A stretch of DNA of 64,000 nt from Actinomycetes bacterium (lineage in GTDB: Bacteria > Actinomycetota > Actinomycetes > Actinomycetales > Microbacteriaceae). Position numbers and translations under genes: made by a program. The notes beneath the pieces are model-generated. The model searched no databases and was not told the origin of the DNA. It worked only from the letters and a program-made list of their open reading frames with translations. The stretch is taken from contig JAKOTS010000032.1 of NCBI GenBank assembly GCA_029777095.1, positions 135,039 to 199,038 on the forward strand, given 5' to 3'. This document shows positions 36,354 through 52,466 of this stretch, piece by piece (position 1 is the stretch's first letter; every line of letters begins with the position of its first letter).

Positions 36354-38246
36354 ATGGCCATTGCCGAGACCCTCAACCCCAGCATCGCTGGGGGCAAGAA
36401 CACGCCCCGTCCCGTTGTGAGCGCCGTTCCCGCCTATTCGGGTGCCGGCATGGACGCCCTGCGTGCGTGGGTCGATGAGATTGCAGCGCTGACGAAGCCC
36501 GCCCGCATCCACTGGGTCGACGGCTCGCGCGCCGAGAACGAGACGCTCCTTCGCGGCATGGTCGACGAAGGTCGCCTTATCAAGCTCAACCCCGAATGGC
36601 GTCCGGGTTCCTACCTGGCACGTTCGCACCCCGGCGACGTTGCTCGCACTGAGGGTCGCACTTTCATCGCATCCGAGCGTGAAGAAGACGCCGGCCCCAC
36701 CAACAACTGGGCCGAGCCCACGGCCATGCGCGCCGAGCTCGAGGGTGTCTTCGACGGCAGCATGCGCGGTCGCACGATGTACGTCGTGCCCTTCTCGATG
36801 GGTGCCGTCGGCGGCCCCCTCTCACACATCGGTGTGCAGCTGACCGACTCGGCTTACGCCGTCGTCAGCATGAGCATCATGACCCGCGTCGGCAAGGACG
36901 TCACAAAGCTCATCGCGGAGGGCGCGGACTGGGTTCGCACCGTCCACTCGGTCGGCGCACCGCTGGCCCCTGGCGAGCAGGACGTCCCGTGGCCGTGCAG
37001 CGACACGAAGTACGTCGTGCACTTCCCCGAAACGCTCGAGGTCTTCTCCTACGGTTCGGGCTACGGCGGCAACGCCATCCTCGCCAAGAAGTGCTTTGCG
37101 CTGCGCATCGCATCGGTGATTGGTCGCGACCAGGGTTGGCTTGCCGAGCACATGTTGCTCATCCGCGTGATCGACCCGAAGGGCAAGGCCTACCACGTGG
37201 CCGCCGCGTTCCCGTCGGCGTGTGGCAAGACCAACCTCGCAATGCTCCGTCCGACGATTCCCGGCTGGCACGTCGAGACGCTCGGCGACGACATCGCCTG
37301 GATCCGTCCCGGTGAAGACGGTCGTCTCTGGGCGATCAACCCTGAGGCGGGGTTCTTCGGCGTCGCACCCGGTACCGGTGAGTCGACAAACGTCACCGCG
37401 ATCGAGACGCTCTGGGGCAACACGATCTTCACGAACGTCGCGCTCCGCCCCGACGGTGACGTCTGGTGGGAGGGCCTGACCGACGAGATTCCCGCGAACC
37501 TCACCGATTGGCAGGGCAACCCCTGGACGCCGCAGAGTGGAACTCCCGCAGCGCACCCCAACTCACGATTCACGGTTGCTGCCGCGCAGTGCCCGCAGAT
37601 CGCAGAAGACTGGGATGCCCCGCAGGGCGTGCCGCTCGATGTCATCCTTTTCGGTGGTCGGCGTGCAACGAACGTGCCGCTGGTTGTCGAGGCAACCGAC
37701 TGGGCGCACGGCGTGTTCCTTGGCTCGACGATTTCGTCGGAGCGCACCGCCGCGGCGGAAGGCACGCTCGGCGAGCTTCGCCGCGACCCGTTCGCGATGC
37801 TTCCGTTCTGTGGATACAACATGGCCGACTACTTCGGTCACTGGCTCACGGTCGGCGGCAAGCTCCGTCACGACCTCGCACCGCGTATCTTCCAGGTCAA
37901 CTGGTTCCGTCGCGGCGCCGATGGCCGGTTCCTGTGGCCCGGTTTTGGCGACAACTCGCGCGTGATCGACTGGATTATCCGTCGCATCTCTGGCGAGGTC
38001 GAGTCAATCGAGTCGCCGATCGGTCGTCTGCCGAACACCGCCGACCTCAACCTTGAGGGCATCGAGGTTCCGCAGGCTGACCTCGACGAGCTGTTCTCGA
38101 TTGATCCCACGTCGTGGTTGCATGAAGCCGACCTCACCGAAGAGTTTTACGCAACCTTCGATGGCAAGGTCCCGGCGGCGCTCCAGGCAGAGCTTGCCTC
38201 GCTGCGCTACCGGCTGACGGCAGCGCAGGCCGCGGCAACGAACTAG
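36354..38246 (+). CDS. pckG: Phosphoenolpyruvate carboxykinase (GTP)
   Basis: [52 protein letters not shown]. Confidence 0.97.
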
Positions 38247-38254
38247 CGAACTCG

Positions 38255-38293
38255 AACGACAACACCCAGGGCTCTGCCCCGGGTGTTGTCGTT
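38255..38293 (+). terminator. Hairpin terminator after pckG
   Basis: AACGACAACACCC / GGGTGTTGTCGTT 13-bp stem extended by a short inner stem. Confidence 0.8.
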
Positions 38294-38334
38294 CCCCCTC
38301 GCTGGTCCGCCCGCCGCGCCTCGCCCGCCGCGCC

Positions 38335-38533
38335 TGCACCCTCCCGTTCCCCCGTCGCGAATCGCCGTGCGCGGCCGGGTTTTCGACCGTTTGCGACTGC
38401 TGAGCGAGGGGTGTGGTCGGGAGCGCACGCTGTCCGCCGCTCGCCCCGCACCGTCCGCCGTGCACCTCCCGTTCCCCCGTCGCGAATCGCCGCGTGGGGT
38501 CGTGTTTTGCGACCGTTTGCGACTGCTGAGCGA
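38335..38533. repeat. About 73-bp REP-like direct repeat pair
   Basis: CTCCCGTTCCCCCGTCGCGAATCGCCG...CGACCGTTTGCGACTGCTGAGCGA at about 38335-38408 and 38461-38533, with a variable central part. Confidence 0.85.
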
Positions 38534-38567
38534 AGGTTGGAGGGGCGGGGCGGGGTAGGGCGGGCGG

Positions 38568-40748
38568 TCAGACGAGGAGCTGGTGCTTCGCGAGTTCGCG
38601 ATACAGCGGTGTGGATGCCACGAGCTCCGAGTGCGTCCCTTGCCCCACGACGCGACCGTGGTCGAGCACCACGATGTGGTCGCTGTCGACGACGGTCGAG
38701 AGCCGGTGCGCGATCACGATGAGCGTGCGGCCAGTGGCGACGGCATCGATTGCCTCACGCATCCGCTGCTCGTTGAGCCCATCGAGCGACGATGTCGACT
38801 CGTCGAGCAGCAGGACCGGCGCGGCGGCGAGCAGCGCGCGGGCGATGGCCAGGCGTTGACGTTCGCCGCCCGAGAGCATGACCCCGTCTTCGCCGACGGG
38901 GGCGTCAAGGCCGAGTGGATTTCGCTCGAGCACCTCGCCGAGATTCACCGAGCGCAGCACCTGCTCGCACTCGACGTCGCTTGCGTCGGGGGCGGCGAGG
39001 CGCAGGTTGTCACCGATCGTGCCGGCGAGGGTCGGGGCATCCTGTTCGACATAACCCAACTGCGCTCGGAGCGTGGCGCGGTCGAGCGTGCGGATGTCGC
39101 GACCCTCGAGGAGAATCGCGCCGCCGGTCGGGTCGTAGAAGCGCTCGATGAGGGTAAGCGTGGTGCTTTTGCCGGCGCCGGAGGGGCCAACGATTGCCAC
39201 GCGTGCGCCGCGGGGGACCCGGAACGAGACGCCCTTGAGGACTTCGCCGGCAGCCGCACCGGAACCGTCGCCGGCAGAACCGGAACCGTCGCCGGCAAAA
39301 CCGGCACCAGCACCAGCACCAGCACCAGCGGACACGCTGGCCGAGGCATCCGAAATGGCGGTCGCAGCCGACGAACGCGAGGTCATGTGTGCGCTCTCCA
39401 AGAGGGCTTCCGCCTCGGCGCTTGCCGAAGCGCGCGCGGCAACGACGGCCTCGGGGTAGTGGAATCGCACGTCGACGAACTCGAGCGCGGCAGGCGCGGC
39501 GCCAGCAACAGAGGCGCCCCCAACGAGAGGCCCAACCCCAACGAGAGCCCCAACCCCAGAGTCCGTCGTGCGACGCGCGGCTGCGGCATCCGCTTCGACT
39601 CGCTTCGCGATCGCCGCGTCGTCGGCGTCTTCGTTCGGAAGATCGAGCACTTCTTGGATGCGACCGAGCGCGCCGAGCGCCTGGTTGACACTCGTGATGG
39701 CGCCGAACGTGCTTGCGAGCGGCTGGATCACCATGAATAGGAACATGATGAATGTGACGAGGCTCGCGATCGTGATGGCGCCGTCGGCGACGCGGAAGCC
39801 GCCCACACCGAGCACGACCAGGAGCGATACCTGCATCGCGATGCCGGCGACCGGCACGACGAGGGCCGAGACCTTTGCGATGCGAACGCCCACGCCGTAC
39901 GCCTCGGTGGCGAGGTCGGTCACGGCGTTCACTTCGCGGTCGGTGGCGCCCGATGCGCGGACCGTGCGAATCGAACTGACCGCACGCTCGACGCCTGAGG
40001 CAAGCTCGCCGACCTTCTCCTGCTGCTGCGTCGAAGCGACCCGGATGCGCGAGCCAAGCATGATGACCGTGAGGATCGACACGGTGATGACGACGAGGAT
40101 GAGCCCGAGCAGGAGTGGGTCGATGATCGCCATCGCGATGATCGCGCCCACAAAGAGGAGCGCGTTGCCAACCCCGTCGGCGAGGCCCTGGGTCAGCACC
40201 GCGTAGAGCAGCGTTGTGTCGGTGCCGACGCGCGAGACGAGATCGCCCGTGCGGCGGGCGTCAAACTCGCGGATGGGGAGGTGGAAGATGCGTGCGATCA
40301 GCTGTCGCCGTGACGAATAGACCACCGCCGTGCCGGTGCGCTGCAAAAGATAGTGCTGGTAGCCAGAAACGACGGACGAGATCACAACGAGGGCGATCAG
40401 CGCCCACACCAGCATCCCGAGGCCCTTGCCTTCACCGACGAGCTGAATCAGCTGGCCCACCAGCAACGGCTGGGCGAGCGACGCGGCGGCGCCAAAGATG
40501 CTGAGCACGACCACGACGACGAGGATCCGCTTGTGCTCGAAGATGAACGGCAGCAGCTGCTTGAGGCTCGCGCGGGGGCCTTCCGGTTCTTTTCCGCGGC
40601 GCCGCATGCCGCCCCCTCGACGTGGCCGACCGGTCGCCGGGGCTGTGCCACGGGCTGTACCACGGGATCGGGGCGCGGTGGCAGTCGGGTGAGCGGATGC
40701 CGCGGCATCCACTCGTGCCGAATCGGAGGGTGTGGCGGGCGAAGACAT
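38568..40748 (-). CDS. ABC exporter (fused TMD + NBD); start approximate
   Basis: GDLVSRVGTDT, Walker A GPSGAGKST, Q-loop VEQD, signature LSGGERQR, LLLDE, IAHRLST. Confidence 0.93.
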   Translation of the reverse strand: MSSPATPSDSARVDAAASAHPTATAPRSRGTARGTAPATGRPRRGGGMRRRGKEPEGPRASLKQLLPFIFEHKRILVVVVVLSIFGAAASLAQPLLVGQLIQLVGEGKGLGMLVWALIALVVISSVVSGYQHYLLQRTGTAVVYSSRRQLIARIFHLPIREFDARRTGDLVSRVGTDTTLLYAVLTQGLADGVGNALLFVGAIIAMAIIDPLLLGLILVVITVSILTVIMLGSRIRVASTQQQEKVGELASGVERAVSSIRTVRASGATDREVNAVTDLATEAYGVGVRIAKVSALVVPVAGIAMQVSLLVVLGVGGFRVADGAITIASLVTFIMFLFMVIQPLASTFGAITSVNQALGALGRIQEVLDLPNEDADDAAIAKRVEADAAAARRTTDSGVGALVGVGPLVGGASVAGAAPAALEFVDVRFHYPEAVVAARASASAEAEALLESAHMTSRSSAATAISDASASVSAGAGAGAGAGFAGDGSGSAGDGSGAAAGEVLKGVSFRVPRGARVAIVGPSGAGKSTTLTLIERFYDPTGGAILLEGRDIRTLDRATLRAQLGYVEQDAPTLAGTIGDNLRLAAPDASDVECEQVLRSVNLGEVLERNPLGLDAPVGEDGVMLSGGERQRLAIARALLAAAPVLLLDESTSSLDGLNEQRMREAIDAVATGRTLIVIAHRLSTVVDSDHIVVLDHGRVVGQGTHSELVASTPLYRELAKHQLLV

Positions 40749-40992
40749 AACGATGTTCCTAGCGTCTGCGAGGGAGCGGGGCGAAACAGTGCGAACCGCA
40801 CCTACGACCGTACTTTGTGTTGTCTGTGACGGAGGTGGCCGCGCGCGCTTTCTTGATTGAGCGGATGCCGCGGCCGCCGCGGCCGCCGCATTCAGGGAGC
40901 TTTCATGATGAATGTCCCCCCTGCTGGGTAGTGTGTGCGATACGAGCCGTCGAATCGTCCGACTCGGTATTGCATCGGATTGGGGAGGGTCG

Positions 40993-41475
40993 TTGAGCGC
41001 ATCTTCGTCGGCACATGCCGCGCCGCCGGCCCGCGGTCGTGCATTTGGGCGGCCATCGTCCCCGGTCAGGCCCGCCGTCACACAGGGCCCTTCGCGTGGC
41101 CGTGCGGTCGCCAGCAGGCTCCCGCTCCTGATCGGCGCCGGGGCCACCACGCTGAGCCTGATCTTCGCGATCGTGGTGTTGGCGTTCTTGAGCGCACCGG
41201 CGCAGTTGTTTGCGGGCTTCTCACTGCCGCTCGTCTCATCCGGTAACTGGGCGCTCAACCTCGTCGGCTACGTGCTCACGCCGCTCGTCGTCATCCTCTG
41301 CTACGGATGGGACGTGGCATGGCAGCGGGGGGCCCGGGCGCACAACCGCAACGTGGTGCTGCGCCCCGGTTACACGCGCATGCTCAAGTGGTTGATGATC
41401 ATCGGCATCGTGCTCGGTGCCTGGCACGTGCTGAACCTCGCGGTACCGCTGACAGAAGCGTGGGGGCTCGGATGA
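40993..41475 (+). CDS. Hypothetical multi-TM membrane protein, gene 1 of the tubulin-like operon
   Basis: GGGAGGG SD before TTG 40993; three hydrophobic segments; TGA overlaps the next ATG (ATGA 41472-41475). Confidence 0.75.
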   Translation: MSASSSAHAAPPARGRAFGRPSSPVRPAVTQGPSRGRAVASRLPLLIGAGATTLSLIFAIVVLAFLSAPAQLFAGFSLPLVSSGNWALNLVGYVLTPLVVILCYGWDVAWQRGARAHNRNVVLRPGYTRMLKWLMIIGIVLGAWHVLNLAVPLTEAWGLG

Positions 41476-44282
41476 GGGTGCTGAGACGAATCGTGACCGG
41501 GGCGGCGCTCGCCGCGGCGATGGTGCTGGCTCCGGTGAGCGCGCTCACCGGAGGCATTGCTGAGGCATCCGCTGCGCCCATCCAGGTGCGTCCGATGGCC
41601 GCCGCGCCCCTCTCGCAAACTGGGCAGGCCGCAATCGACGACCTCCGCACCTGCCTCGCCTCTGAAGACGTACTCAACGTCTACTATCTGATCGACAATT
41701 CACTCTCGCTTGCGCTCGAAGACGACGGCGTCACGCCGGGTACCGACCCCGAAACGGTGCGCGCCGAGATCCTTGGCAACAGCCTGCAGCAGCTCGGCGC
41801 GCTCGGCGCGGGGCACCAGGTCAACTGGGCAGCCGGGTTCTTCAGCACCGATTTCACGCCCGCCATTGGCTGGCAGGGGTGGACGTCGCAGAGCAACGCC
41901 CAACTCGCCGACTCGATTCGTGGCAAGAAGCCCGGCGGGTACACCAACTGGCTTGGGGGCCTGCGCGGTGCACAGAACGCGCTCGCGGCTCAGGAGCGCG
42001 TCGCGCCCGGTTGCCAAGTGGTCGTGTGGCTCACCGACGGAATGATGGACCTCCCAAACAACGCCGACGAAGCCCCCGCGATGGCGGCCCTGTGCGGGAG
42101 CGGGCCGAGCGATTTTGGTGTGCTCAACGCGATGCGTCAGTCGGGTACCGTCGTGCTCGGCGTGCTCCTGGCAGACCAACAGGTCAGTGCCGACGCCGAA
42201 ATCTTGCGACCGCTGGTCGAAGGCACCGGCACGGTTGGGGGCCAAGAAACCACGTGCGGACAGCAACCGATTCCGAGCACACACGTGCACGGCGCGGTGA
42301 TCGAGGCGGCCGATCCTGCCGCGCTGGCGCTCGTCTTTCTTGAACTCGCAACCCGCATTGGCGGCGGGTATCCGGCACCCCTCGCGGCCGACGGCTCGTT
42401 CTTCATCGACGCGGGCGTTGCGCGGTTTCAGTTCGTGATCGGCGGTGGCGATTGGGTGCTCGAGGCGCCCCCCGAAACCGGCCTCTCACCGATGACAGCA
42501 GCGAGTCCTTGGCCCGGTGTCAAGATCACCCCGTCCGGTAGCGCGACGGTGATCGAGGTGCCGATCGGCGAGGCGACGCAGCTCGGAAAGTGGCGATTGG
42601 ATGCCGGGGACGTCCGTGATGTGTTCCTCTTTAGCGACCTTCGCATCGTGTTCGATGCCCAGAACAAGATTGAGCTCGGTGCCGACGGCGCGGCCTCATC
42701 GACCATCGGCGGCACCGTGCAGGGCCCCGATGGCAAGCCCGCCGACCTCGCGGTTTATGGTGATGCGGCGTTTCACGCGGCGATCATCCCCGCAGACGGT
42801 TCTGCACCGATCCCGCTTGCGGGCGCTGAGGTTGATCCGACCTCGGGCACGGTGAAGATTCCGCTGCCCGCCGACATCGACTCCGCCGAGCTGCTCCTGA
42901 GTGCGTCCATCGACCCGCTGACGACGGCACCGCACGGCCTCGCGCTCGCGCCGGTGACCACGCAACAGCGGATTCCGACGGTGCTTCCCGCGTCCTTCCC
43001 CAGGATTCCCACCCTCCCCGTGAGACTTGCCGATCTCGTCGGTCGCGACGGGCTCGCGACCGGGGTGATCCGCGTCGAGCCCGCCCCCGATGGCAGCGCG
43101 ACGCAGGTGTGCACGTCGGCCGATGTCACGGTGGCAAGCGATGCCGCCGAGCGTGGGCAGACCTGGGCGTGGACCGTGGGCGAGAGCGCAACGGTCGAGG
43201 CATCCTGCATCGCGGTCCCCGCGGGCACCAGTGTCGTCGAGATTCCGATCACGGCGGCCAACAGCGTGCCGGCCGACAGCGACGTTCGCGCTTCGGTGCC
43301 GGTGACTTTCGTCTCGGCTGCGGGCGACGAAATCGTCCAGCAGGTGCCGCTGACCTTTTCTTCGACGCGTCCGCTGAATGCGGCGGCGACGGGCCTCATC
43401 GCGCTCGGGCTCCTTGTGTTGGGGGTCCTGCTCCCACTCATCATTCTCTGGATCGTTAACTGGTTGACGACCACCCTGAGCATCGCGCGCAACACGCAAC
43501 GAGGCATGCTGCCCGTGACGATCGACAGCGCCGGTGTGCGCACGAACGTCGCGATCGACGAGTCGTCGCTCGGGGCCACCGTGTTTCAGAACCGGCCACC
43601 AATCGAGCGCGAGCGCTCGATCCACGACCCCGATCTCGGGGTGCTTCGGGCCCGCGTGCCGTGGTGGCCAGTCAACGACACCTGGTTCGAAGTTGTGCCG
43701 CCCACTGGGTCGGCCATCGTGCTCGCCCGCACCAGCACTCGCGCGGGCTCGCTCGGTTCTCGAGCCAACCCCGACGACCGTGCTGTGCGCTTCTCGAACC
43801 TGCCGCTTGACTCGTTCACCGCGGTCGTGGTGAACGAAGAAGAACTCCGCCGCACGCGAAGAGGAGACGCGGTCTCGGCGCGCGTGGTGTTCTACCACCG
43901 GCCCGAGCCTGGCGTGTCAGACCAATACACCGCCAGGTTTGCCGAGCTGCAGGCCGAGTCAGACCTGCTTTCGCGCGTCGACCGGCTGCGCGAGAGCCTC
44001 GCTGCCGGCGCGGCAACGGCAACGGCAACGGCGGTAATGCCAACGGACGCGGGACGCGTACCTGCATCTGCACCCGCGCCTGAACGCGGGCGCGCGGATG
44101 CCCCGCCCCCGCGCAGCGGTGGGGGAGCCACGCCGCCGCCACCCGCGCGCGACGGCGGGGCGATCCCGCCGGGCCCCGGTGGCAACGGAGCGCCGCCCGC
44201 GCCAGGCGTTGGTGGATCGCCGCCCCCGCCCTCCCGGGGCGGCCCGCCCCCGCCGCCGCCTCCGCCCTCGCGCGGCGGGTAG
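41472..44282 (+). CDS. Membrane-anchored vWA (MIDAS) domain protein with Pro-rich cytoplasmic tail
   Basis: Signal-peptide-like N-terminus, DNSLS (DxSxS), GGYTN, VWLTDG, beta-rich middle, TM helix (IALGLLVLGVLLPLIILWIV), polyproline C-terminus. Confidence 0.88.
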   Translation: MRVLRRIVTGAALAAAMVLAPVSALTGGIAEASAAPIQVRPMAAAPLSQTGQAAIDDLRTCLASEDVLNVYYLIDNSLSLALEDDGVTPGTDPETVRAEILGNSLQQLGALGAGHQVNWAAGFFSTDFTPAIGWQGWTSQSNAQLADSIRGKKPGGYTNWLGGLRGAQNALAAQERVAPGCQVVVWLTDGMMDLPNNADEAPAMAALCGSGPSDFGVLNAMRQSGTVVLGVLLADQQVSADAEILRPLVEGTGTVGGQETTCGQQPIPSTHVHGAVIEAADPAALALVFLELATRIGGGYPAPLAADGSFFIDAGVARFQFVIGGGDWVLEAPPETGLSPMTAASPWPGVKITPSGSATVIEVPIGEATQLGKWRLDAGDVRDVFLFSDLRIVFDAQNKIELGADGAASSTIGGTVQGPDGKPADLAVYGDAAFHAAIIPADGSAPIPLAGAEVDPTSGTVKIPLPADIDSAELLLSASIDPLTTAPHGLALAPVTTQQRIPTVLPASFPRIPTLPVRLADLVGRDGLATGVIRVEPAPDGSATQVCTSADVTVASDAAERGQTWAWTVGESATVEASCIAVPAGTSVVEIPITAANSVPADSDVRASVPVTFVSAAGDEIVQQVPLTFSSTRPLNAAATGLIALGLLVLGVLLPLIILWIVNWLTTTLSIARNTQRGMLPVTIDSAGVRTNVAIDESSLGATVFQNRPPIERERSIHDPDLGVLRARVPWWPVNDTWFEVVPPTGSAIVLARTSTRAGSLGSRANPDDRAVRFSNLPLDSFTAVVVNEEELRRTRRGDAVSARVVFYHRPEPGVSDQYTARFAELQAESDLLSRVDRLRESLAAGAATATATAVMPTDAGRVPASAPAPERGRADAPPPRSGGGATPPPPARDGGAIPPGPGGNGAPPAPGVGGSPPPPSRGGPPPPPPPPSRGG

Positions 44283-44356
44283 CCGTGTACCTCGCGCATC
44301 CTGCGCCGGGCACAACTGATCTTGCACCTGACCACACCTACTCAGAAGGCGAAACC

Positions 44357-47300
44357 ATGCTTAGACCGTTCCTCATCATCGGCGTCGGCGGCTCCGGTGG
44401 AAAGACTCTGCGCGGCATCAAGTACCAACTCGAGCTCAAGCTGCAGCAGGTGGGTTGGCGCGGTGGGATCCCGGACGCATGGCAGTTTCTGCACTTCGAT
44501 ACGCCGACGGTGCAGGACGGCATCGACTATGCCATCCCCTTCCTTCCGCCGCAGGAATACAAGGGGCTGGTGAGCGCAGGGGCGACCTACGACACCGTGT
44601 ACCGCTCAATCGAGCGCGCACACGCCACGAACGCGAGCGTGCACAAAGACATCCAGCGGCAATTGCCCGACCCACAGATCGTGCGCGTCGACGTCACCAA
44701 GGGTGCCGGCCAGTACCGTGCCGTCGGCCGCGCCGTCGCGCTCTCGTCGACGAAAGAGATCGCGGCGGCGGCCCGTGCGGCGATCGGTCGCCTCGGTGAC
44801 GCGCAGGCGCTCGCGCAGCTGCAGACCCTCGGCCGCGCCCTCCGTGCGCGCGACGACGGCGCCGCATCAAGCTCGCCCACGGTCATTGTTATCTCGTCGA
44901 TCGCCGGTGGTTCTGGCGCGGGACAGTTCCTCGATGTGATCGAGGTCGTGAAGTCGACCGCGAAACAGTACCCCTGGTCGAACCAGTTCTTCAGCATGCT
45001 GTACGCGCCGGATGTGTTTGACCAGCTCCCGGTGACCGCCGGAATGCCCGGCAACGCCATCGCCGCGATCGCGGAAACGATGAACGGGTTCTGGACCGAC
45101 ACGCCCTCGCAGTCAACGCTTGAACTCCTCAAGAACCAGGGCATCGCGCCCTCGTATGGCGGGGCGATGGACAACGTCGGGGCGGCGTATCCATTCATCA
45201 TCGGGCGAAGCAACTCGAAGGTGACATTCGCCGACCAGAGTGCCGTCTACGACGCCGTCGCGACCAGCCTCACGGCGTGGATGACCGACGACCGTGTGCA
45301 AGACGAGATCACGGCCTATGCCACCGGCAACTGGCAGAGTCGGGTGGGCGCCAGCGTGCTCAGCGACGCCACTGGCCTGATGAGCCCGGCGCGCAATTCG
45401 CCGCCGTTCTCGTCGATCGGCTTTGGCCGCGTGACGCTCGGCCGCGAGAAGTTTCTTGAATACTCGGCGGAGCGCTTCGCGCGTTCCTCGGTGGATCGCA
45501 TGCTGTTTGCGCACATCGAAGACGACAAACAATTCATGCAGCGTACCGAGGAAGAGTGGGTTGCCGTCCGCGCCTCCGAGGCGTACCAGCGCTTCATCAC
45601 CGAGCTGCGCCTGAACGAAGACACCGAGGAGCACAACGACGTCGTCGACGCGCTCCGCGCCGGCGACATGATCAACAACCTGGTGGCGAGCCTCGAACAC
45701 GAGGTGCAGGCGCGCCTTGCCGATCCGGCACAGCTCGATCGCAACGGCGGGCTCGACATCAGCTCGTGGTCCGAGCGCCTGCTCATCGAATACACCTACC
45801 GTGCCCCGGCACTGTTGCTGCGTGATCAGCAGGCGCGACAGGCGAATTTGGATGCCTGGATCGCGTCGGTGCCCTCCAACATTCTGCACACGATTGCCCG
45901 CTACATCTCGAGCTCCGGGTTGCCCGTGGTCATCAAGATGTTGCACCAGCTCGAGGGCGACCTCAAGGCCGCGTCCGACAGTCTCATCGCCGAGGCGGGT
46001 ACTCGTCACGGCTGGGTCCAGCAGCTCAACTCCTTGGTGAGCCAGGAGCTGCAGTCCGCTCCCAACCAGCAGTCGATTCGTCCCGATCAAGACGCGGTGG
46101 CGGGCGCCATCGAGCGCATCGGCCAGGGACTGCGCTGGGCGAGCGAGGCAAAGCTGCGGTCCTCGGCCGCGCAGCTGATCTCGGAGCTTCGCACCGACTT
46201 CTTGGGGCCGCTGCGCCACTATTTGCAGAGCACGCTTGACGAGCTTGGCCAGCGTGCGAAGGCGCCGAAGACCAGCGATGACCGTGACAACGGGTATCCC
46301 TTCTGGCCCACGCGCGAAGACACGACCGTGCCGCGCAAGTACGAACCGGCACCGAATGAGCGGCTCCTGGTCGAGCACACCGAATACCCGACGGAGTTCG
46401 ACCGGCTCGTGCGCGCAAGCGCCGGTGGCCCTGCAACCCGCTTCGGTGACGCCATCCTTGGGGTCATCTCCGAGCTCATCGTCGGTGAGGCGCCCAACGA
46501 TGTTGACCAGGATTCCGACACGTCATGGGCCCTGGTCTCGATCAACCGCACCTGGGTGCCCTCGGTCCTGACCGACGGAACCTCCCGCACGAAGCAGGCG
46601 CCGCGCTTCGCGATGGCCGCGCAACCCGATACCTACGTGCAGCGCGCGCGTGCGTGGATGCGCCGCGAAGGTACGCCCTTCAACGCCTATGTCACCGAAG
46701 ACCTGATGACGTTCTTCGACGACGTCGAGTTGCCGCCCGACGTGTTCGGTCGCCGTCGCGAGAAGTATCGCGAGCAGCTCACGGCGGCTCTCGGCGCGAG
46801 CGAACCGCTGGTCAAGCTCAACCCGTCGCTCCTTCGGATCGTGCATGACAAGGCGATCGGTGACTCCACCGGGCTCGTGTTCAGCTCGATCCCCTTCAAG
46901 GAGGGCACCGAAATGTACGCCGTCACGAAGACGGTGCTTGGCAACATGGGCTTCTGGGATGACGCTGTCTCTGACGGTTGGTTCCATGACGCCCGTGTCG
47001 ACGGCATCGAGGTATTCGCGATGTCTGGATTCCCCTACCAGCCGATCGTGATGGATTCGGTGATGGAACCCATCGCCCGGGACTGGCTTGCCCAGTCGCA
47101 CTCGCAGGATGCCCGTGAATCGTTCTGGCAGTTCAAGAAGAGCCGGCTGCTCGAAGAAGCCATTCCGGCCGACCCGCAGGTCACGCGCGCGATGATTCGT
47201 GGCTGGTATGTCGCCAAGGCGTTGGGCTGGCTGAAAGCGCCAACCGAGACCAGCGAGCGTGGCCCGAAGCTTGGGGTGTGGGACTCGGAGCGTCGAAGCG

Positions 47301-47770
47301 ACGTGTGGTTCCCGCATCCGCTTCTGCACCCCCGGAATGCACCCGCCGCGGACTTCCCGGGCGTCGTGATGCAGTCGCTCACGATCGCTTTGGCGCTGTG
47401 CAACTCGGAAGGCTCGCTCGAGCCGCTCGCGGGCTACCAAGCGCTCAAGGCGCTCGGTGGACCACGGCTCGAGATGGCGCCCGTGCTGATGAACTGGGTG
47501 CAAAATGGCCGGGTGCCCGAAGGATCGGCGTTGCCCGACGAGGGACGTGCCGGCGGAAGCGCGGGCAGCCTCGAGTCGCGTCAGCTTGCCCTGAGCGAGT
47601 TCTTCCGTCAGCAGACCGTCGCGTTCACGGAGGGCGTCGTCAATCACGACTTCCTCGAGTCGGTGTACGACTACCCGGTGAGCTGGGAGATTCGCGACCT
47701 CATCTTGACGGCACTCGACGACCTCACCTCCTCGGTGATGTCGACGCGTGCCCCGGACACGGGCGTTTAG
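44357..47770 (+). CDS. Large FtsZ/tubulin-like GTPase (Tubulin_2 / FtsZl1 type)
   Basis: IIGVGGSGGK (cf. FtsZ IGVGGGG), GAGQYRAVGR (cf. GAGANPEVG), SSIAGGSGAG (cf. GGGTGTG signature), then an ~800-aa extension. AGAAGG SD before ATG 44357; alternative GTG at 44285. Confidence 0.88.
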   Translation: MLRPFLIIGVGGSGGKTLRGIKYQLELKLQQVGWRGGIPDAWQFLHFDTPTVQDGIDYAIPFLPPQEYKGLVSAGATYDTVYRSIERAHATNASVHKDIQRQLPDPQIVRVDVTKGAGQYRAVGRAVALSSTKEIAAAARAAIGRLGDAQALAQLQTLGRALRARDDGAASSSPTVIVISSIAGGSGAGQFLDVIEVVKSTAKQYPWSNQFFSMLYAPDVFDQLPVTAGMPGNAIAAIAETMNGFWTDTPSQSTLELLKNQGIAPSYGGAMDNVGAAYPFIIGRSNSKVTFADQSAVYDAVATSLTAWMTDDRVQDEITAYATGNWQSRVGASVLSDATGLMSPARNSPPFSSIGFGRVTLGREKFLEYSAERFARSSVDRMLFAHIEDDKQFMQRTEEEWVAVRASEAYQRFITELRLNEDTEEHNDVVDALRAGDMINNLVASLEHEVQARLADPAQLDRNGGLDISSWSERLLIEYTYRAPALLLRDQQARQANLDAWIASVPSNILHTIARYISSSGLPVVIKMLHQLEGDLKAASDSLIAEAGTRHGWVQQLNSLVSQELQSAPNQQSIRPDQDAVAGAIERIGQGLRWASEAKLRSSAAQLISELRTDFLGPLRHYLQSTLDELGQRAKAPKTSDDRDNGYPFWPTREDTTVPRKYEPAPNERLLVEHTEYPTEFDRLVRASAGGPATRFGDAILGVISELIVGEAPNDVDQDSDTSWALVSINRTWVPSVLTDGTSRTKQAPRFAMAAQPDTYVQRARAWMRREGTPFNAYVTEDLMTFFDDVELPPDVFGRRREKYREQLTAALGASEPLVKLNPSLLRIVHDKAIGDSTGLVFSSIPFKEGTEMYAVTKTVLGNMGFWDDAVSDGWFHDARVDGIEVFAMSGFPYQPIVMDSVMEPIARDWLAQSHSQDARESFWQFKKSRLLEEAIPADPQVTRAMIRGWYVAKALGWLKAPTETSERGPKLGVWDSERRSDVWFPHPLLHPRNAPAADFPGVVMQSLTIALALCNSEGSLEPLAGYQALKALGGPRLEMAPVLMNWVQNGRVPEGSALPDEGRAGGSAGSLESRQLALSEFFRQQTVAFTEGVVNHDFLESVYDYPVSWEIRDLILTALDDLTSSVMSTRAPDTGV

Positions 47771-47771
47771 C

Positions 47772-50700
47772 GTGACGCAACGGTTCTGGCCGGGCGGCAA
47801 AGCCAGTGTGATCTTGCTGCCGAGCGGCAAGCAGGGTCTCGCCGTGCTTGAGCGCGCCGCGCAATGGACCCAAATGGGTCTGCTCGGCCCGGCGCTGTGG
47901 GTGCTGCCCGAGCGGGTCTCCATCGGCACCGGCGGCCCCGCGGTCATCGGTGCAACCGTGCTGGGCGTCGGGCGTGAGCAACAACTGGTCACGCTCGAGG
48001 TCGACCTATTCGAGACCCTCGCGCGCGAAGAGCTCCGGCTCGTGCGCATGATCAAGCTGCGATCGGCGAGCGCATCGCGCGAGCTCGATGCTGAGCAAGA
48101 CGGCATCGCCGACACCGTTGCCGCAACCCTCAGCCAGTCGATGCCGATGGCGACGCCCACCGCGAATGTGGCCGACCGTGCCACCGACCTCGCTCGGGTC
48201 ACGCTCATTTGCGCCCCCAGCGAGTTTCAGTTGCAAACGCGCGTCGACTGGGCGGTCAAAGAATATGGCACGGTCGTGGTGGCCTCACCCGAAGACCGCT
48301 CGAGCCCGTGGTCAGGTGACGCGTTTGTGCGCGACAACGACCGTTTCGTCGGCTTTGTGTTGATGCACCTCGCGAGCGTTGCAGGGCTCTGGAGCGGCGT
48401 CGAGAAGGGCACCTTCGAGCTTTTCCCGAGCCAGACCTCAGGCGTCGGTAGCGTGTGGGTCTCGCGGGTCTTCCTCAACGCGGTGCTCACCGAATCGATC
48501 GGTCGACGGACCGCCGCCGGCGTGCTCGAAGAAGCAGGCCGCGCCGACTCGCTCCTGATCGATCCCAGCGTTGGATCACCACCAGAGGGCACGTTTTACA
48601 TCGACGACGGTGACGTTGCCGGGTTCACCGCAGCGATGGTCGACGCGGTGCTCTCGCTCGACGCCGCCGCGCTCGCCTTTCACCCACCCGCGGTGGTGGC
48701 CGACCCGCCGCAGCGCCGCATCGGCATCGGTGCGCAGTTCGGCAGCTTCTTCTCGTTCTCGGGTGACAAGCTCGCGGGCATGCCGCGCTGGACGTGGCGC
48801 TGGGTCACCTCGAGCACGGCTCGCTCGCTCACACGTCGCCTCCACGGCGATGACGGCACGCACGTCGTAGGCGAAGACCTCGATCAGGCATTCGATCTGC
48901 GCGACCGGCTCCTGCTGCTCGAACGCGGACGCGTCCTCGAACATGAGCAGGCCGCGCGCGCCATGATGGCTGGTCCGGTTGGCGTCGGGCAGCAGCACAC
49001 CACCCCACGCTTGTGGACCCGCCTGCGCGAGCTCGTGTTTGGCTCGCTCGACGGAAGTTCAGATCTGAGCGACCTCGGGTTCGCCGAGGTCGAGGGTAAG
49101 GTCCCGGTGTTTGGCCGGGTCAGCGATGTGTTTGAAGCACCCGACGAGCTGTGGTCGCCCCCCGACGGGGCTGCCCGGGCCGGCGGGGCGCCGATTGGCT
49201 GGCACGACATCGCGCTCGAGAACCCGCGCGCGGTGCTCGTAGAGTCTGCGGTGCGGAGCGCGAACGATCAGGAGCAGGCCGAGGCCCAGTTGACGCTTGC
49301 CCAGCGCACGGTCGCTGAGCTGCATCATCAGCGCGAGGTGGGCGAGTGGCAGAGCGTGCTCGACGGCACGATTTCGATCGCGATCGCTGAGTCTGACGCG
49401 GATGCCGCTGGCAACGGTGCTGCCGCGGCTGACGCCGCTCCGACGGCCGACGTCGTGAACGGGCCCGGCGTTTCACCCAACGACGACGACGCGGATGACA
49501 GCGACGACCGCGACGACACTGACGACACGAATGGCGTGGAGGAGAAGACCGAAACTCCCCTTACTCGGGCCGCGCTGAAAGCAGAGGCAGAAGCAGAAGC
49601 AGAAGCAGAGGCAGAAGCCGAGGCCGAAGCAGCTACCGATCCGGACACCGACACCGACATCGACAACGAAGCGGGTGTCGAACCCACGGCCGAGACTGCA
49701 ACGAGCGTGGATGCCGAGGAGCCTGGCACGCCAGCAGCAGCAGCACCAGCACCAGCCGCAGCGTCAGCACCCGCCCGCGACCCGCGCCTCGAGGCATCCA
49801 TCGCGGCTGCCGAAGCTCGACTTGCAGCGGCCGAGGCGCATGAGCGCGAAGTCGCTGCGGCGCGCATCGCGTCCGCCGCGGCGGTCGAGAGCTTCGACGT
49901 CTGGGCCGTGCGCCACGAACGCTCGTTCGTGTGGCGCCTGCTCGCACGCCTTGCACACGAGCGCCGTGGCGCCCAGGCCGCGGCCGACTCGTTCGCCCAG
50001 GGCATCGACGCGCTCGACGTGCAGAAGCCCGGCGCGCTGATTGCCCTGCGCAAGCGCTTTCACCTCACCATGCTGGTGGGCTGGCTGATCATCGTGGCCG
50101 TTGCCGCGCTCCTCATTCTGCTCCCCGTGTGGTTCGAAGACCTTCGCCCAAACGCGTCCTGGTACCCCAACGACCCGACCATCTTCACGGTGGCGGCGCT
50201 CGCCGCGGTTGTCTTGACGCTCATCGCGCTCGCGACGTACCACCGAGGTTGGTCACAGTTCCAACGGCGCATCGACCTTGCACAGGTGCATCTCACGCGG
50301 GTCTCGCAGGGCTCCGTGCACGCTCGCATCGAGGTCGCGCGCCTTGGGTCGCTGCACCGGCAGACGGTTGATTGGCTCGTGCTGCTGGCACGCGGCATCC
50401 ATCGGCCATGGCTCGTCCCCGAAGAATGGTCGCAACGGCCCTCCTATGCGGGGGCGCGCGACGCGATGCCGTTCGCGATGCAGATCGGGCAGGTGCAAGA
50501 CGAAGACCATGCGGCCGCGACCCGGCTCAAGCGCATGACGAAGGAGCGGCTTGTCGTGCGGGGCTGGCGCCAGCAAGCCTTTACGGCGCTGATCGCCGAG
50601 GTTGCCGCCGAACTCGGGCAGGGCTCGGCATCGTTCGGGCTCGCCGCGCTCGACGAGGACTTGCCGCATTCGTCGAACCACACCCGCGAGATGCTGCGCG

Positions 50701-51224
50701 AAAACATGGGCAACGAGGCCGTACTGCAGCGCGTCGCCGCACCGCGACTGCGCGAGCTGATGGCGTCGATCCAGCGCTCGGCGCTGCACGGAAGCCGCCC
50801 GCTTGTGCACCCGGTTGGCGACAACCCGCTGCGCGAGATTGCCTCCACGGACGTCGTGGGTGGGGCCGTCGAAGACCTGCCATGGGATGACTTCCTGCTC
50901 GGCTCGCTCGCCGGCCGCCGCGACCCGGTCACGCCGCTCAGCGCCGTGAGCATGTCGGAGCGGCAGGTGCAGGAGGGCTATCACGAGCACGTGCAGAGCC
51001 TGCTCGTGCTTCCGGAGCGACTCGAAGCCGACCTCGAGTTTCGGGCAGATGCGCCGGTTTCGCTCGTGCCCTACGGTGGTGGCGGCTCGGCCACGCTCGA
51101 CCTGGTGTGGCGCGTCGACCTGGCGGGGCCGCTGCCGGTGTCGGCGATCCGGTTGTGGGATGCCGCAGCCGAGCCCCCGCACGAGGGCACGGGCGTGCAG
51201 CACCGCGAAGACTCGGGGGTGTGA
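47772..51224 (+). CDS. Large hypothetical 2-TM protein with acidic/Ala-Glu linker, gene 4 of the operon
   Basis: GTG 1 nt after the previous stop; 1150 aa; two TM helices; D/E-rich and (EA)n region; GC3-rich coding pattern. Confidence 0.85.
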   Translation: MTQRFWPGGKASVILLPSGKQGLAVLERAAQWTQMGLLGPALWVLPERVSIGTGGPAVIGATVLGVGREQQLVTLEVDLFETLAREELRLVRMIKLRSASASRELDAEQDGIADTVAATLSQSMPMATPTANVADRATDLARVTLICAPSEFQLQTRVDWAVKEYGTVVVASPEDRSSPWSGDAFVRDNDRFVGFVLMHLASVAGLWSGVEKGTFELFPSQTSGVGSVWVSRVFLNAVLTESIGRRTAAGVLEEAGRADSLLIDPSVGSPPEGTFYIDDGDVAGFTAAMVDAVLSLDAAALAFHPPAVVADPPQRRIGIGAQFGSFFSFSGDKLAGMPRWTWRWVTSSTARSLTRRLHGDDGTHVVGEDLDQAFDLRDRLLLLERGRVLEHEQAARAMMAGPVGVGQQHTTPRLWTRLRELVFGSLDGSSDLSDLGFAEVEGKVPVFGRVSDVFEAPDELWSPPDGAARAGGAPIGWHDIALENPRAVLVESAVRSANDQEQAEAQLTLAQRTVAELHHQREVGEWQSVLDGTISIAIAESDADAAGNGAAAADAAPTADVVNGPGVSPNDDDADDSDDRDDTDDTNGVEEKTETPLTRAALKAEAEAEAEAEAEAEAEAATDPDTDTDIDNEAGVEPTAETATSVDAEEPGTPAAAAPAPAAASAPARDPRLEASIAAAEARLAAAEAHEREVAAARIASAAAVESFDVWAVRHERSFVWRLLARLAHERRGAQAAADSFAQGIDALDVQKPGALIALRKRFHLTMLVGWLIIVAVAALLILLPVWFEDLRPNASWYPNDPTIFTVAALAAVVLTLIALATYHRGWSQFQRRIDLAQVHLTRVSQGSVHARIEVARLGSLHRQTVDWLVLLARGIHRPWLVPEEWSQRPSYAGARDAMPFAMQIGQVQDEDHAAATRLKRMTKERLVVRGWRQQAFTALIAEVAAELGQGSASFGLAALDEDLPHSSNHTREMLRENMGNEAVLQRVAAPRLRELMASIQRSALHGSRPLVHPVGDNPLREIASTDVVGGAVEDLPWDDFLLGSLAGRRDPVTPLSAVSMSERQVQEGYHEHVQSLLVLPERLEADLEFRADAPVSLVPYGGGGSATLDLVWRVDLAGPLPVSAIRLWDAAAEPPHEGTGVQHREDSGV

Positions 51225-51475
51225 GGATCGACCCCGCCAGTGACTCCTTTCAGCCGCGGCCAACGCCCGTGTTCGCCCCGAAGAAGCGCGCGCCAAGCCG
51301 CGGCCGGAGGCGCATGATTCTCGCGGCGGTCGCGGCCGTGCTCCTCGGTATCGTCATCGGGGCATGGATCGCGGTCGTTGCTGTGCAGCGCGAGTTGGCG
51401 CAGGTGCCGGCGAGCAGTTCGCAGGCGGGCCAGGTGACCGACACGCACCCATTGCTGTGCAGTGTGACGGCGTAA
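51221..51475 (+). CDS. Small bitopic membrane protein, gene 5 of the operon
   Basis: GTGA overlap with the previous stop; basic stretch KKRAPSRGRRR followed by a ~22-aa hydrophobic helix. Confidence 0.65.
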   Translation: MRIDPASDSFQPRPTPVFAPKKRAPSRGRRRMILAAVAAVLLGIVIGAWIAVVAVQRELAQVPASSSQAGQVTDTHPLLCSVTA

Positions 51476-51485
51476 GCTGGGCCCT

Positions 51486-51923
51486 ATGGACACAGTGCTC
51501 AGCATTCTTCACGTCGCCTCGGCGGTATTTATCGTCGGGCCAATGGCAATCCTTCCAATGACGGGTCTTCGCGCCCTTCGCTCCGGCAACGGTGCGCAGG
51601 TTCGCACGCTCGCCAAGTCGACCTCGATCTTCACGTGGCTCTCGCTACTCGTCTTCGTCTTCGGGTTTGGCATCCTCGGCATGTCGGGCAAGGCATGGGG
51701 CATCAGCTTCATGACGCCGTGGATCCTGTGGTCGGTCATCCTCTATGCCCTCGCGTTCATTCTCACGATGTTCGTCGTGGCGCAGATGAACAAGGCAGCC
51801 GCAGAGGTCGACGGATCGACCCCCGGCACGAAGCCCTCGGGCTACGGCGCCATCGCGGGGAGCAGCGGCGTGGCCGCACTGCTCCTGCTGGCCGTGGTCG
51901 TGCTGATGATCTGGAAGCCGTAA
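51486..51923 (+). CDS. DUF2269-like 4-TM membrane protein
   Basis: LHVASAVFIVGP start, PWILWSVILY, C-terminal VVLMIWKP. TAAGCT -10 (51473-51478) 7 nt before ATG suggests its own leaderless promoter. Confidence 0.8.
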   Translation: MDTVLSILHVASAVFIVGPMAILPMTGLRALRSGNGAQVRTLAKSTSIFTWLSLLVFVFGFGILGMSGKAWGISFMTPWILWSVILYALAFILTMFVVAQMNKAAAEVDGSTPGTKPSGYGAIAGSSGVAALLLLAVVVLMIWKP

Positions 51924-51933
51924 CACGCACTTG

Positions 51934-51977
51934 AACGACGGGAGGGTGGATGCCGAAGCATCCACCCTCCCGTCGTT
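51934..51977. terminator. Bidirectional terminator hairpin
   Basis: Perfect 20-bp stem AACGACGGGAGGGTGGATGC / GCATCCACCCTCCCGTCGTT with CGAA loop between convergent genes. Confidence 0.88.
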
Positions 51978-51986
51978 TTCTTGGTA

Positions 51987-52466
51987 CTACGCGCCCGCGC
52001 GCAGGTCGCGCAACACCAGTGCGGTCGCGATCGCGGCGTGCGCCGACTCGCCGCCCTTGTCTTCTGCCGAGTCGGGGAACCCGGCGCGGTCGATGCCCTG
52101 CGCTTCGTCGTCGAGCGTGAGCACGCCAAACCCGACCGGCTTGCCGGTGTCGAGCGCGACGCGAGTGAGACCATCCGTCGCCGCGGCCGAGACGAACTCG
52201 AAGTGCGGCGTGCCGCCACGGATGATCACGCCGAGCGCCACCACCGCGTCAGCGCCAGCCTCAAGCGCGGCCTTTGCGGCCACTGGCAGCTCGAAGCTGC
52301 CCGGCACGCGCACGAGTGAATACGTGGCACCAGAGGCATCCAATTGCCGCACTGCACCCGCAATGAGGCCGTCAGAGATCACCTCGTGCCAGGTCCCGGC
52401 GATGATCACGACCCGGAGGCCCTTCGCGTCGATGTGTGTGCGCTCTGCTGCTCCGTGCCCGCTCAT
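51987..52466 (-). CDS. ribH: 6,7-dimethyl-8-ribityllumazine synthase
   Basis: VPGSFELP, ALGVIIRGGTPHFEFV, PVGFGVLT. Confidence 0.96.
   Translation of the reverse strand: MSGHGAAERTHIDAKGLRVVIIAGTWHEVISDGLIAGAVRQLDASGATYSLVRVPGSFELPVAAKAALEAGADAVVALGVIIRGGTPHFEFVSAAATDGLTRVALDTGKPVGFGVLTLDDEAQGIDRAGFPDSAEDKGGESAHAAIATALVLRDLRAGA

Follow-up and report, generated by a model that had tools for sequence, protein, structure and literature searches.

The stretch of DNA analysed here (the window hereafter) covers 64,000 nucleotides of an Actinomycetes bacterium of the Microbacteriaceae (GenBank assembly GCA_029777095.1, contig JAKOTS010000032.1, positions 135,039 to 199,038 of the forward strand) and contains an array of four genes, g1 to g4, all read on its forward strand. 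The third one, g3, is the subject of this work. It encodes a soluble tubulin-like protein of 1137 amino acids (aa), an ordinary member of the FtsZl1 family that was predicted computationally by Makarova & Koonin (2010, Biol Direct 5:33; PMC2875224). The g3 open reading frame (ORF) extends from 44357 to 47770 (+) without any internal stop, and the ATG at 44357 is taken as its true start because nearly all of 76 complete related loci open with ML(R/K)PFL..GVGGSGGKT. From its N-terminus the protein consists of a Tubulin_2 domain, delimited by Pfam, AlphaFold2 and Foldseek as a divergent nucleotide-binding fold of the tubulin/FtsZ type (residues 6-379; 44372..45493, +), a stalk of three long helices placed by the AlphaFold2 model at residues ~468-520, 522-555 and 579-635 (45758..46261, +), one or more C-terminal alpha/beta domains defined by the model and by conservation (residues ~641-1129; 46277..47743, +), and a flexible C-terminal tail ending in RAPDTGV (47744..47767, +), the last block of the model having a predicted local distance difference test (pLDDT) value of 67.

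An earlier note, made from the letters of the window alone, had likened three glycine-rich motifs of g3 to the T1, T3 and T4 loops of FtsZ. IIGVGGSGGK (residues 7-16; 44375-44404), GAGQYRAVGR and SSIAGGSGAG (residues 180-189; 44894-44923) do lie where it placed them, and the key residues of each are invariant among 77 homologues that are 32-95% identical over g3 residues 1-440, the set on which head conservation was assessed. Indeed, the T1 loop proper, GVGGSGGKT (residues 9-17; 44381..44407, +), is invariant from G9 to T17. The T3 loop GAGQYRAVGR (residues 116-125; 44702..44731, +), strand S4 with the T4 signature SIAGGSGAG (residues 181-189; 44897..44923, +) and the T5-like LYAPDVF (residues 215-221; 44999..45019, +) were located through an hhalign alignment with FtsZ, used for motif mapping only, which pairs GAGQxR..GR with T3 (GAGadPevGr in FtsZ), AGGSGAG with GGGTGTG, and YAPDVF with PFxFEG of T5 (TrPFxFEG). 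H46-F-D48 (44492..44500, +) may correspond to T2, as it sits after strand S2 (residues 42-48) in the model; D48 is invariant and H46 at least 90% conserved. The other invariant positions of the head are A117, R121, G124, S181, A183, G184, G187, G189, F221, N233, E240, G283, G355, L361 and F366, while P218, D219, V220, D337 and R358 are conserved to at least 90%. As the same note had observed, the T7 motif NxDxxD is missing: a regular-expression search finds none in residues 1-400 and only loose matches at 420 and 1096. The H7-like helices of the model (residues 294-330) are followed by no FtsZ-type beta-sheet domain, and the conserved loop after them, D337...PPFSSxGFGRVTLGREKF (residues 337-366; 45365..45454, +), is modelled with low confidence (pLDDT 57-67). 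Since hhalign sets D337 opposite the T7 region of FtsZ, again with low confidence, this loop is a candidate replacement for T7.

The reading of g3 as a tubulin-like protein with its nucleotide loops kept is borne out jointly by the match to Pfam, the conserved motifs and the search for related folds. Tubulin_2 (PF13809) matches g3 with E=6.6e-40 and 137.9 bits against a cut-off of 27, over profile positions 1-355 of 356, and scores 141.4 bits in the genome search. It is the sole Pfam domain reported, FtsZ_C and Tubulin_C being absent from g3; the classical Tubulin family PF00091 gives no match to g3 and its genome search returns only the true FtsZ. The head and the extension were modelled separately, as the earlier note had suggested. 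For residues 1-440 the AlphaFold2 model built from the 77 homologues has a mean pLDDT of 81.8 and a predicted TM-score (pTM) of 0.77, and in a Foldseek search of the PDB its top 50 matches are all CetZ, FtsZ or tubulin with a probability of 1.00, so only tubulin-superfamily folds; the best is CetZ 3zid_A (E=1.4e-5) and 68 matches reach E<=1e-3. The glycine motifs could alternatively be due to chance or be P-loop-like, GGSGGKT resembling a Walker A motif, in a protein lying outside the tubulin superfamily. The Lys-Thr that closes the T1 loop, the missing PF00091 match and sequence-only searches of the PDB that yield no significant tubulin would fit such a protein, but the uniform top 50 structural matches, the collinearity of the T1-T5 motifs with those of FtsZ, and the existence of a curated Pfam family and of published HHpred evidence make it exceedingly improbable. 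A P-loop NTPase reading of GGSGGKT was itself rejected, on the fold matches and because Val at position 10 breaks the pattern G-x4-G-K-[ST]. The g3 head is a real, strongly diverged nucleotide-binding domain of the tubulin superfamily in which T1-T5 are kept; its T7 and C-terminal domain have been replaced or can no longer be recognised.

With the T1-T4 loops invariant, GTP binding is likely, and the sequence supports well that g3 binds GTP or another NTP. The earlier note had added that hydrolysis may need a partner acting in trans. This idea is hardly distinguishing, given that in all FtsZ and tubulin GTPases it is the T7 loop of the neighbouring subunit that completes the enzyme in trans; in g3 the element in trans could be supplied by a second copy of g3, through its loop with D337 and G355-F-G-R358, or by the g4 product, both being candidates. 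It is also conceivable that the head is a pseudo-enzyme, holding GTP or GDP structurally, as alpha-tubulin does at its N-site, or holding none at all, and never polymerising, so that the protein would be a large adaptor. Neither a T7-like catalytic motif nor an FtsZ C-terminal domain is found, as such an adaptor would have it, but all phosphate-contacting glycine loops and K16-T17 are strictly invariant down to ~30% identity, which speaks for a nucleotide cycle that is functional and not a relic, and we regard the adaptor as improbable.

The extension of about 800 aa that follows the head had been described as helical-looking, free of transmembrane (TM) segments, Trp/Phe-rich and unexplained. 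The first two descriptions hold, as residues 401-1137 are modelled with 60% helix and 6% strand and the highest 19-residue Kyte-Doolittle value of g3 is 1.48. The enrichment in aromatic residues is mild, with 2.5% Trp and 3.4% Phe in residues 381-1137, although seven Trp of the extension are invariant across 35 homologues. The extension itself is real, but to call it unexplained passes over the published FtsZl1 architecture and the linkage to a vWA protein, both considered below. Residues 401-1137 are modelled confidently by AlphaFold2 from 77 homologues, with a pLDDT of 90.3 and a pTM of 0.65. The stalk, whose helices fall within ~468-635, has a pLDDT of ~95, residues 401-640 being 81% helical, and the mixed alpha/beta region after it comprises 50% helix and 8% strand with a pLDDT of ~75-96. 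Many Pro, Trp and Phe positions of the extension are invariant, and the C-terminal domain carries conserved Pro/aromatic-rich motifs, namely VPRKYxPAPNERLL, EPLVKLNP, FPYQPIVMDSVM, FPHPLL and YPVSWE; no catalytic motif is seen among the conserved residues. Despite the confident model, the fold search returns no structural analogue at E<=0.001 in the PDB or BFVD, and the best matches are generic long-helix bundles of the ClyA/AhlB kind with E ~0.1-0.5. The modelled helical stalk and alpha/beta domain would fit a scaffold. Furthermore, nearly all of the 120 homologues listed are 1127-1151 aa long and aligned end to end, and an exhaustive search of 1.84 billion representatives (50% clustering) gives 598 clusters at E<=1e-30, mostly of 1100-1150 aa and matched from residue 1 to ~1130. 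The extension is the standard architecture of the family and is not peculiar to the gene of the window.

The three other genes of the array all encode membrane proteins. The first, g1 (40993..41475, +), encodes ~160 aa with three predicted TM helices and belongs to no Pfam or PHROGs family; it starts with TTG preceded by GGAGG, and its stop overlaps the ATG of g2 (ATGA). The g2 product (41472..44282, +) is made of a signal peptide, an extracytoplasmic vWA domain with a metal ion-dependent adhesion site (MIDAS), a beta-rich region, one TM segment, a cytoplasmic domain and a poly-Pro tail. Its MIDAS consists of DNSLS, T158 and D189, with D75, S77, S79, T158 and D189 at least 90% conserved among 57 homologues, and the family profile matches vWA chains of the PDB (TRAP, ITIH4, alpha2delta and C2; best E=1.2e-4). 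The fourth gene, g4 (47772..51224, +), has a GTG start one base past the g3 stop and encodes 1150 aa, arranged as a globular N-terminal part of ~500 aa, an acidic low-complexity/(EA)n spacer, a TM hairpin at residues 762-825 a C-terminal cytoplasmic domain and a tail that ends in REDSGV. Among 47 g4 homologues there is no meaningful Pfam family, just scattered matches of one or two members; the PDB sequences give no match beyond coiled-coil noise, and NCBIfam has none for g2-g4 save a sub-threshold ExtQ on g4 (16 bits against a cut-off of 150).

The arrangement of the array was surveyed in 83 Actinomycetota loci, including Microbacteriaceae, Nanopelagicales, Cellulomonadaceae, Georgenia, Occultella and others. 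In these, g2 lies directly upstream of g3 at 69-70 loci and g4 downstream of it at 73, g1 is detectable upstream of g2 at 48, and g2, g3 and g4 stand together in ~70 of the 83, with gaps of zero to a few bases; most of the misses concern contigs that are truncated or the lineages that have diverged furthest. Hence g3 is linked tightly, and in part by overlap, with the three membrane-protein genes. Some copies of the operon come from metagenome-assembled genomes labelled Planococcus, Microthrixaceae, Chitinophagales, Luminiphilus and Bifidobacterium breve (L013, L005, L030, L070, L074 and L082), and their 30-88% identity to the Microbacteriaceae gene together with the same gene order makes these labels look like binning or contamination errors. 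Around the array in the window, the small ORF 51107-51475 after g4, with one TM helix, has no homologue in the 83 loci and is therefore probably outside the conserved module, and the DUF2269 gene at 51486-51923 is common to the closest relative, L004, only. On the other side, an ABC-transporter ORF of 896 aa with a TTG start (38568-41258, -) overlaps g1 in antisense through a low-complexity N-terminal extension of ~240 residues; as its Pfam domains begin at residue 247, translation probably starts well downstream of that TTG, near 40600.

The C-termini of g3 and g4 were compared in every locus. They are alike, and their ending changes together from one lineage to another. In the window and most Microbacterium g3 ends in DTGV and g4 in DSGV (given here in this order), in Subtercola the ends are KSGI and NSGI, in Occultella both are REFL, and at single loci they are RAFL and DAFL (L065), GDFN and ADFN (L067), EPLL and EPLL (L070), and GGWA and EAWA (L081). 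Considering one entry per distinct g3 tail (n=27), the identity over the last four residues is 2.15 residues for true pairs versus 0.70 for permuted ones, a value that none of 10,000 permutations reaches; when the dominant xSG[VI] class is excluded it is 1.57 versus 0.46, and again 0 of 10,000 permutations reach the observed value. Both C-termini are predicted to be cytoplasmic. The C-terminal peptide of FtsZ docks to FtsA, ZipA or SepF, and by analogy the simplest reading of the shared endings would be a common docking site for the g3 and g4 tails. In freshwater actinobacteria of the Nanopelagicales type (L118:13361-16596; L038-L051) g4 is split, for example into 521 and 557 aa; at these loci the C-terminal domain of g4, ~210 aa, is encoded further downstream, and the g3 tail is acidic (EEED, DEDED) and not xSG[VI].

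A comparison of the full-length g3 and g4 profiles by hhalign finds nothing, and the N-terminal parts give a collinear alignment with E=0.049 and a score of 23.9, which 5 of 60 column-block shuffles equal or exceed (null 20.1 +/- 2.4; p ~0.08). As the shuffled controls reach the same score, g4 as a degenerate tubulin paralogue of g3 is unsupported. That alignment sets g4 residues 8-406 (47793-49000) against the g3 head (44357-45676), with SVILLPSGKQG opposite FLIIGVGGSGGK and PWS...GLW..ELF of g4 opposite PWS...GFW..ELL of g3. In g4, E174 is invariant and D175 and R176 nearly so.

The distribution of the family is patchy. Of 201 genomes from the bacterial family of the window, 10 carry Tubulin_2; within the genus, two of four sampled genomes do. 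The syntenic site is bounded by PEPCK/ABC transporter on one side and by the riboflavin operon on the other; there, one congener has g1-g4 together with a GmrSD_C gene, while two congeners hold transporters only and lack the g1-g4 block. Close relatives thus either carry g1-g4 entire or lack it altogether. A defence island at the window's own site was rejected, the syntenic region of the congeners holding transporters and not defence genes. The interval from PEPCK to riboflavin is variable in the genus (L120:10646-18218; L121:12648-18217; L122:1740-18200; window 38246-51987) and contains, depending on the species, ABC/MFS transporters, a GH35 beta-galactosidase, an LD-carboxypeptidase, or g1-g4. 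Elsewhere, 36 of 86 loci have a GmrSD_C gene close to the array, mostly directly downstream of g4 (L001:16544-17362; L084:16797-17405; L085:16546-17310; L119:16796-17554; L122:7049-8032, -); it has no counterpart in the window. Its product, of the GmrSD_C (DUF1524) His-Me finger nuclease type, is 200-330 aa long with an N-terminal TM segment or signal, a Pro/Ala-rich linker and a terminal Cys, and looks extracytoplasmic. The flanks found elsewhere are varied and comprise NERD, helicase or GmrSD_C; DUF222-HNH, GmrSD_C and SRA-McrA; GmrSD_C, DUF6361, PLD and helicase; an integrase, an SLFN-type helicase and MazG; or housekeeping genes only.

Taken as a whole, these observations are best explained, with somewhat better than even confidence on our part, by g3 being the nucleotide-driven cytoplasmic part of a membrane complex to which it is docked by its tail, the role of the complex leaning towards envelope sensing or conflict. 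The g3 product is a soluble cytoplasmic protein in three parts, a nucleotide-binding head of ~380 residues, a stalk of three helices and, at the C-terminal end, a large alpha/beta domain. It would bind GTP and act as a switch or as a self-assembling scaffold within a four-protein assembly that spans the membrane. The short C-terminal peptide of g3 would dock it to its membrane partner, as the FtsZ peptide does, and g4 would compete for this docking site or share it, while the outward-facing vWA/MIDAS domain of g2 would bind a ligand at the cell surface or outside the cell. The patchy accessory distribution and the frequent nuclease-domain neighbour make us lean to an envelope-linked module for sensing or conflict over a core cytoskeleton; that g3 assembles or switches at the membrane, is tethered there through its tail and takes part in envelope sensing or conflict are tentative suggestions.

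The same genes could instead form a housekeeping machine for membrane remodelling or a cytoskeleton, in which the head polymerises by a new interface and shapes membranes or vesicles, the vWA and TM partners are its anchors, and conflict has no part. Membrane remodelling is what Makarova & Koonin originally proposed for the family (PMC2875224). All the partners are membrane proteins, the long stalk recalls those of membrane-remodelling GTPases (a match to the dynamin stalk is insignificant, E=2), the flanks are housekeeping genes in the window and at several other loci, and a location on the rpsO side is common to two genera, which suggests vertical inheritance. However, only ~5% of the genomes in this bacterial family carry the protein family, and congeners lack it at the corresponding site; it is thus dispensable and subject to frequent gain or loss. 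Moreover, the elements by which FtsZ polymerises (T7 and the C-terminal domain) are not found, and the array has no linked gene for ESCRT, dynamin or any other remodelling factor. We consider a housekeeping machine of this kind doubtful.

A role wholly in conflict was also considered, in which the array would be a reduced relative of the DO-GTPase/GAP1-N2 systems: the vWA domain would sense an invader at the cell surface, the tubulin-like NTPase would serve as an oligomerising threshold switch, and g4 or the DUF1524 nuclease would be the effector. Tubulin-containing systems of this sort have been described in actinobacteria by Kaur, Burroughs, Iyer and Aravind (2020, eLife 9:e52696; PMC7159879). 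The patchy distribution of a block that comes and goes as a whole agrees with it, as do the GmrSD_C gene adjoining the array in many loci and the presence of NERD, SRA-McrA, PLD/helicase or integrase/SLFN genes in 4-5 of 9 annotated neighbourhoods, these being raw counts. However, neither DO-GTPase nor GAP1 is found in the operon or elsewhere in the genome, which is 96.8% complete, and nine genomes of the bacterial family that carry Tubulin_2 lack them too. In searches of the genome itself, PF19993 (DO-GTPase) finds no match at E<=0.01, DO-GTPase1 not having been searched, while the Corynebacterium glutamicum control matches; GAP1-M (PF20014) is absent from the genome and below cut-off in the nine related ones, no GAP1 family occurs in the 47 g4 homologues, and the control genome has DO-GTPase2, GAP1-M and Tubulin_2 all present. 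Membership of a DO-GTPase/GAP1 system was rejected on the absence of DO-GTPase2 and GAP1-M. Furthermore, PADLOC gives no match, and the linked DUF1524 protein, with its signal or TM segment, looks extracytoplasmic, which is unusual for an anti-phage nuclease, and is absent from the window. A reduced conflict system is thus a tentative possibility, although one that we weigh seriously.

Several points weigh against the tail-docked, nucleotide-driven membrane complex that we favour. For the head, the TM-scores against FtsZ and tubulin are low (0.27-0.46) and the root-mean-square deviation is high, which indicates that the head model is divergent or partly wrong; searches of PDB sequences with the single sequence and with the head profile return no significant tubulin, the best match being the T4 stretch against an Asgard tubulin with E=1, and the local hhalign of the head against 30 actinobacterial FtsZ, in which T3, T4 and T5 are collinear, is weak (E=0.14). 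We know of no precedent for polymerisation without a T7 loop or a C-terminal domain, and the docking role of the tail is drawn by analogy. The window is flanked by ordinary metabolic and transport genes and several other loci by housekeeping genes, so that a conflict role is weakly supported; PADLOC (PADLOC-DB 2.0) has no match for g2, g3 and g4, g1 not having been scanned, and PHROGs has no family for any of g1-g4. Finally, our search of the literature found no biochemical data on any family member and no report of an FtsZl1/Tubulin_2 protein that had been purified, imaged or knocked out.

A bolder proposal would make the four genes a new transmembrane device, in which an extracellular, metal-dependent vWA sensor is coupled to a cytoplasmic GTPase of the tubulin superfamily that assembles or switches without the usual T7/C-terminal-domain mechanism. 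This GTPase and the g4 membrane protein would both be recruited by one co-evolving docking peptide at their tails, and the whole would serve as an accessory system for envelope surveillance or against invaders, in many relatives with a surface-exposed DUF1524 nuclease; we hold this to be unlikely. If the head binds and hydrolyses GTP without T7 or the C-terminal domain, it would represent a second working mode for the tubulin fold. The conserved linkage of g3 to a vWA/MIDAS protein that faces outwards suggests a transmembrane coupling from outside to inside. The shared, co-varying peptide of g3 and g4 makes the idea of tail docking concretely testable, and natural controls exist in Microbacteriaceae that carry or lack the block at one and the same chromosomal position. 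The interest of the system rests on an unexplored family and on the tail-docking idea, and on nothing unique to the window.

Compared with the known systems, g3 shares with FtsZ, CetZ and tubulin (PF00091) the class of the nucleotide-binding fold and collinear T1-T5 loops, and its short C-terminal peptide after a flexible end is reminiscent of the FtsZ peptide that binds membrane tethers. Unlike FtsZ, its T4 reads AGGSGAG, its T1 ends in Lys-Thr where FtsZ has Asn-Ala, large inserts separate S2 from T3 and ~750 additional residues are present, while the T7 motif NxDxxD, the C-terminal beta-sheet domain and a match to PF00091 are lacking. As a canonical FtsZ is encoded on another contig of the same genome (G000:C55:37019-37498, E=1.4e-48), g3 is not the division protein. 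In the systems of Kaur et al., one protein with a tubulin domain, whose alpha-helical C-terminal region is uncharacterised, is accompanied by a membrane-bound vWA/beta-rich protein, and action near the membrane is proposed (PMC7159879). The g3 and g2 proteins resemble this pair, a tubulin protein with a helical C-terminal domain beside a membrane-bound vWA/beta-rich protein, but g1-g4 differ in having no DO-GTPase, GAP1 or detected FNIII/HRDC, and in possessing g1 and g4, which lie outside curated families.

The closest correspondence is with FtsZl1, the most divergent branch of the tubulin superfamily by the published account. Its members begin with an FtsZ-like head, continue as a long coiled coil and end in a C-terminal domain that is largely helical; T6-H7 are not confidently identifiable and H5 is the last alignable element (PMC2875224). 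Their operons encode vWA proteins that keep the MIDAS motif and lineage-specific TM proteins, and they occur alongside a normal FtsZ, the actinobacterial members forming a distinct clade (PMC2875224). In a study of 2023 such 'FtsZ-like' proteins are treated as the same as Pfam Tubulin_2, and NCBI already names g3 and its homologues 'tubulin-like domain-containing protein'. Likewise, g3 has the T1 and T4 loops in its N-terminal domain, no element that aligns reliably beyond H5 and neither FtsZ_C nor Tubulin_C, followed by a helical middle and a helical C-terminal domain for a total of ~1000-1100 aa, and its locus has an adjoining vWA protein with an intact MIDAS, TM partners, a coexisting FtsZ and a place in the actinobacterial clade. 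All five features of membership are found and nothing in g3 contradicts it, so that g3 is an ordinary member of the published FtsZl1/PF13809 family. What the present analysis adds for the actinobacterial subtype is the fixed order g1-g2-g3-g4, the C-terminal peptide that co-varies between g3 and g4, a fold model for the extension that is confident but lacks a structural analogue, and an occupancy of 5% within one bacterial family.

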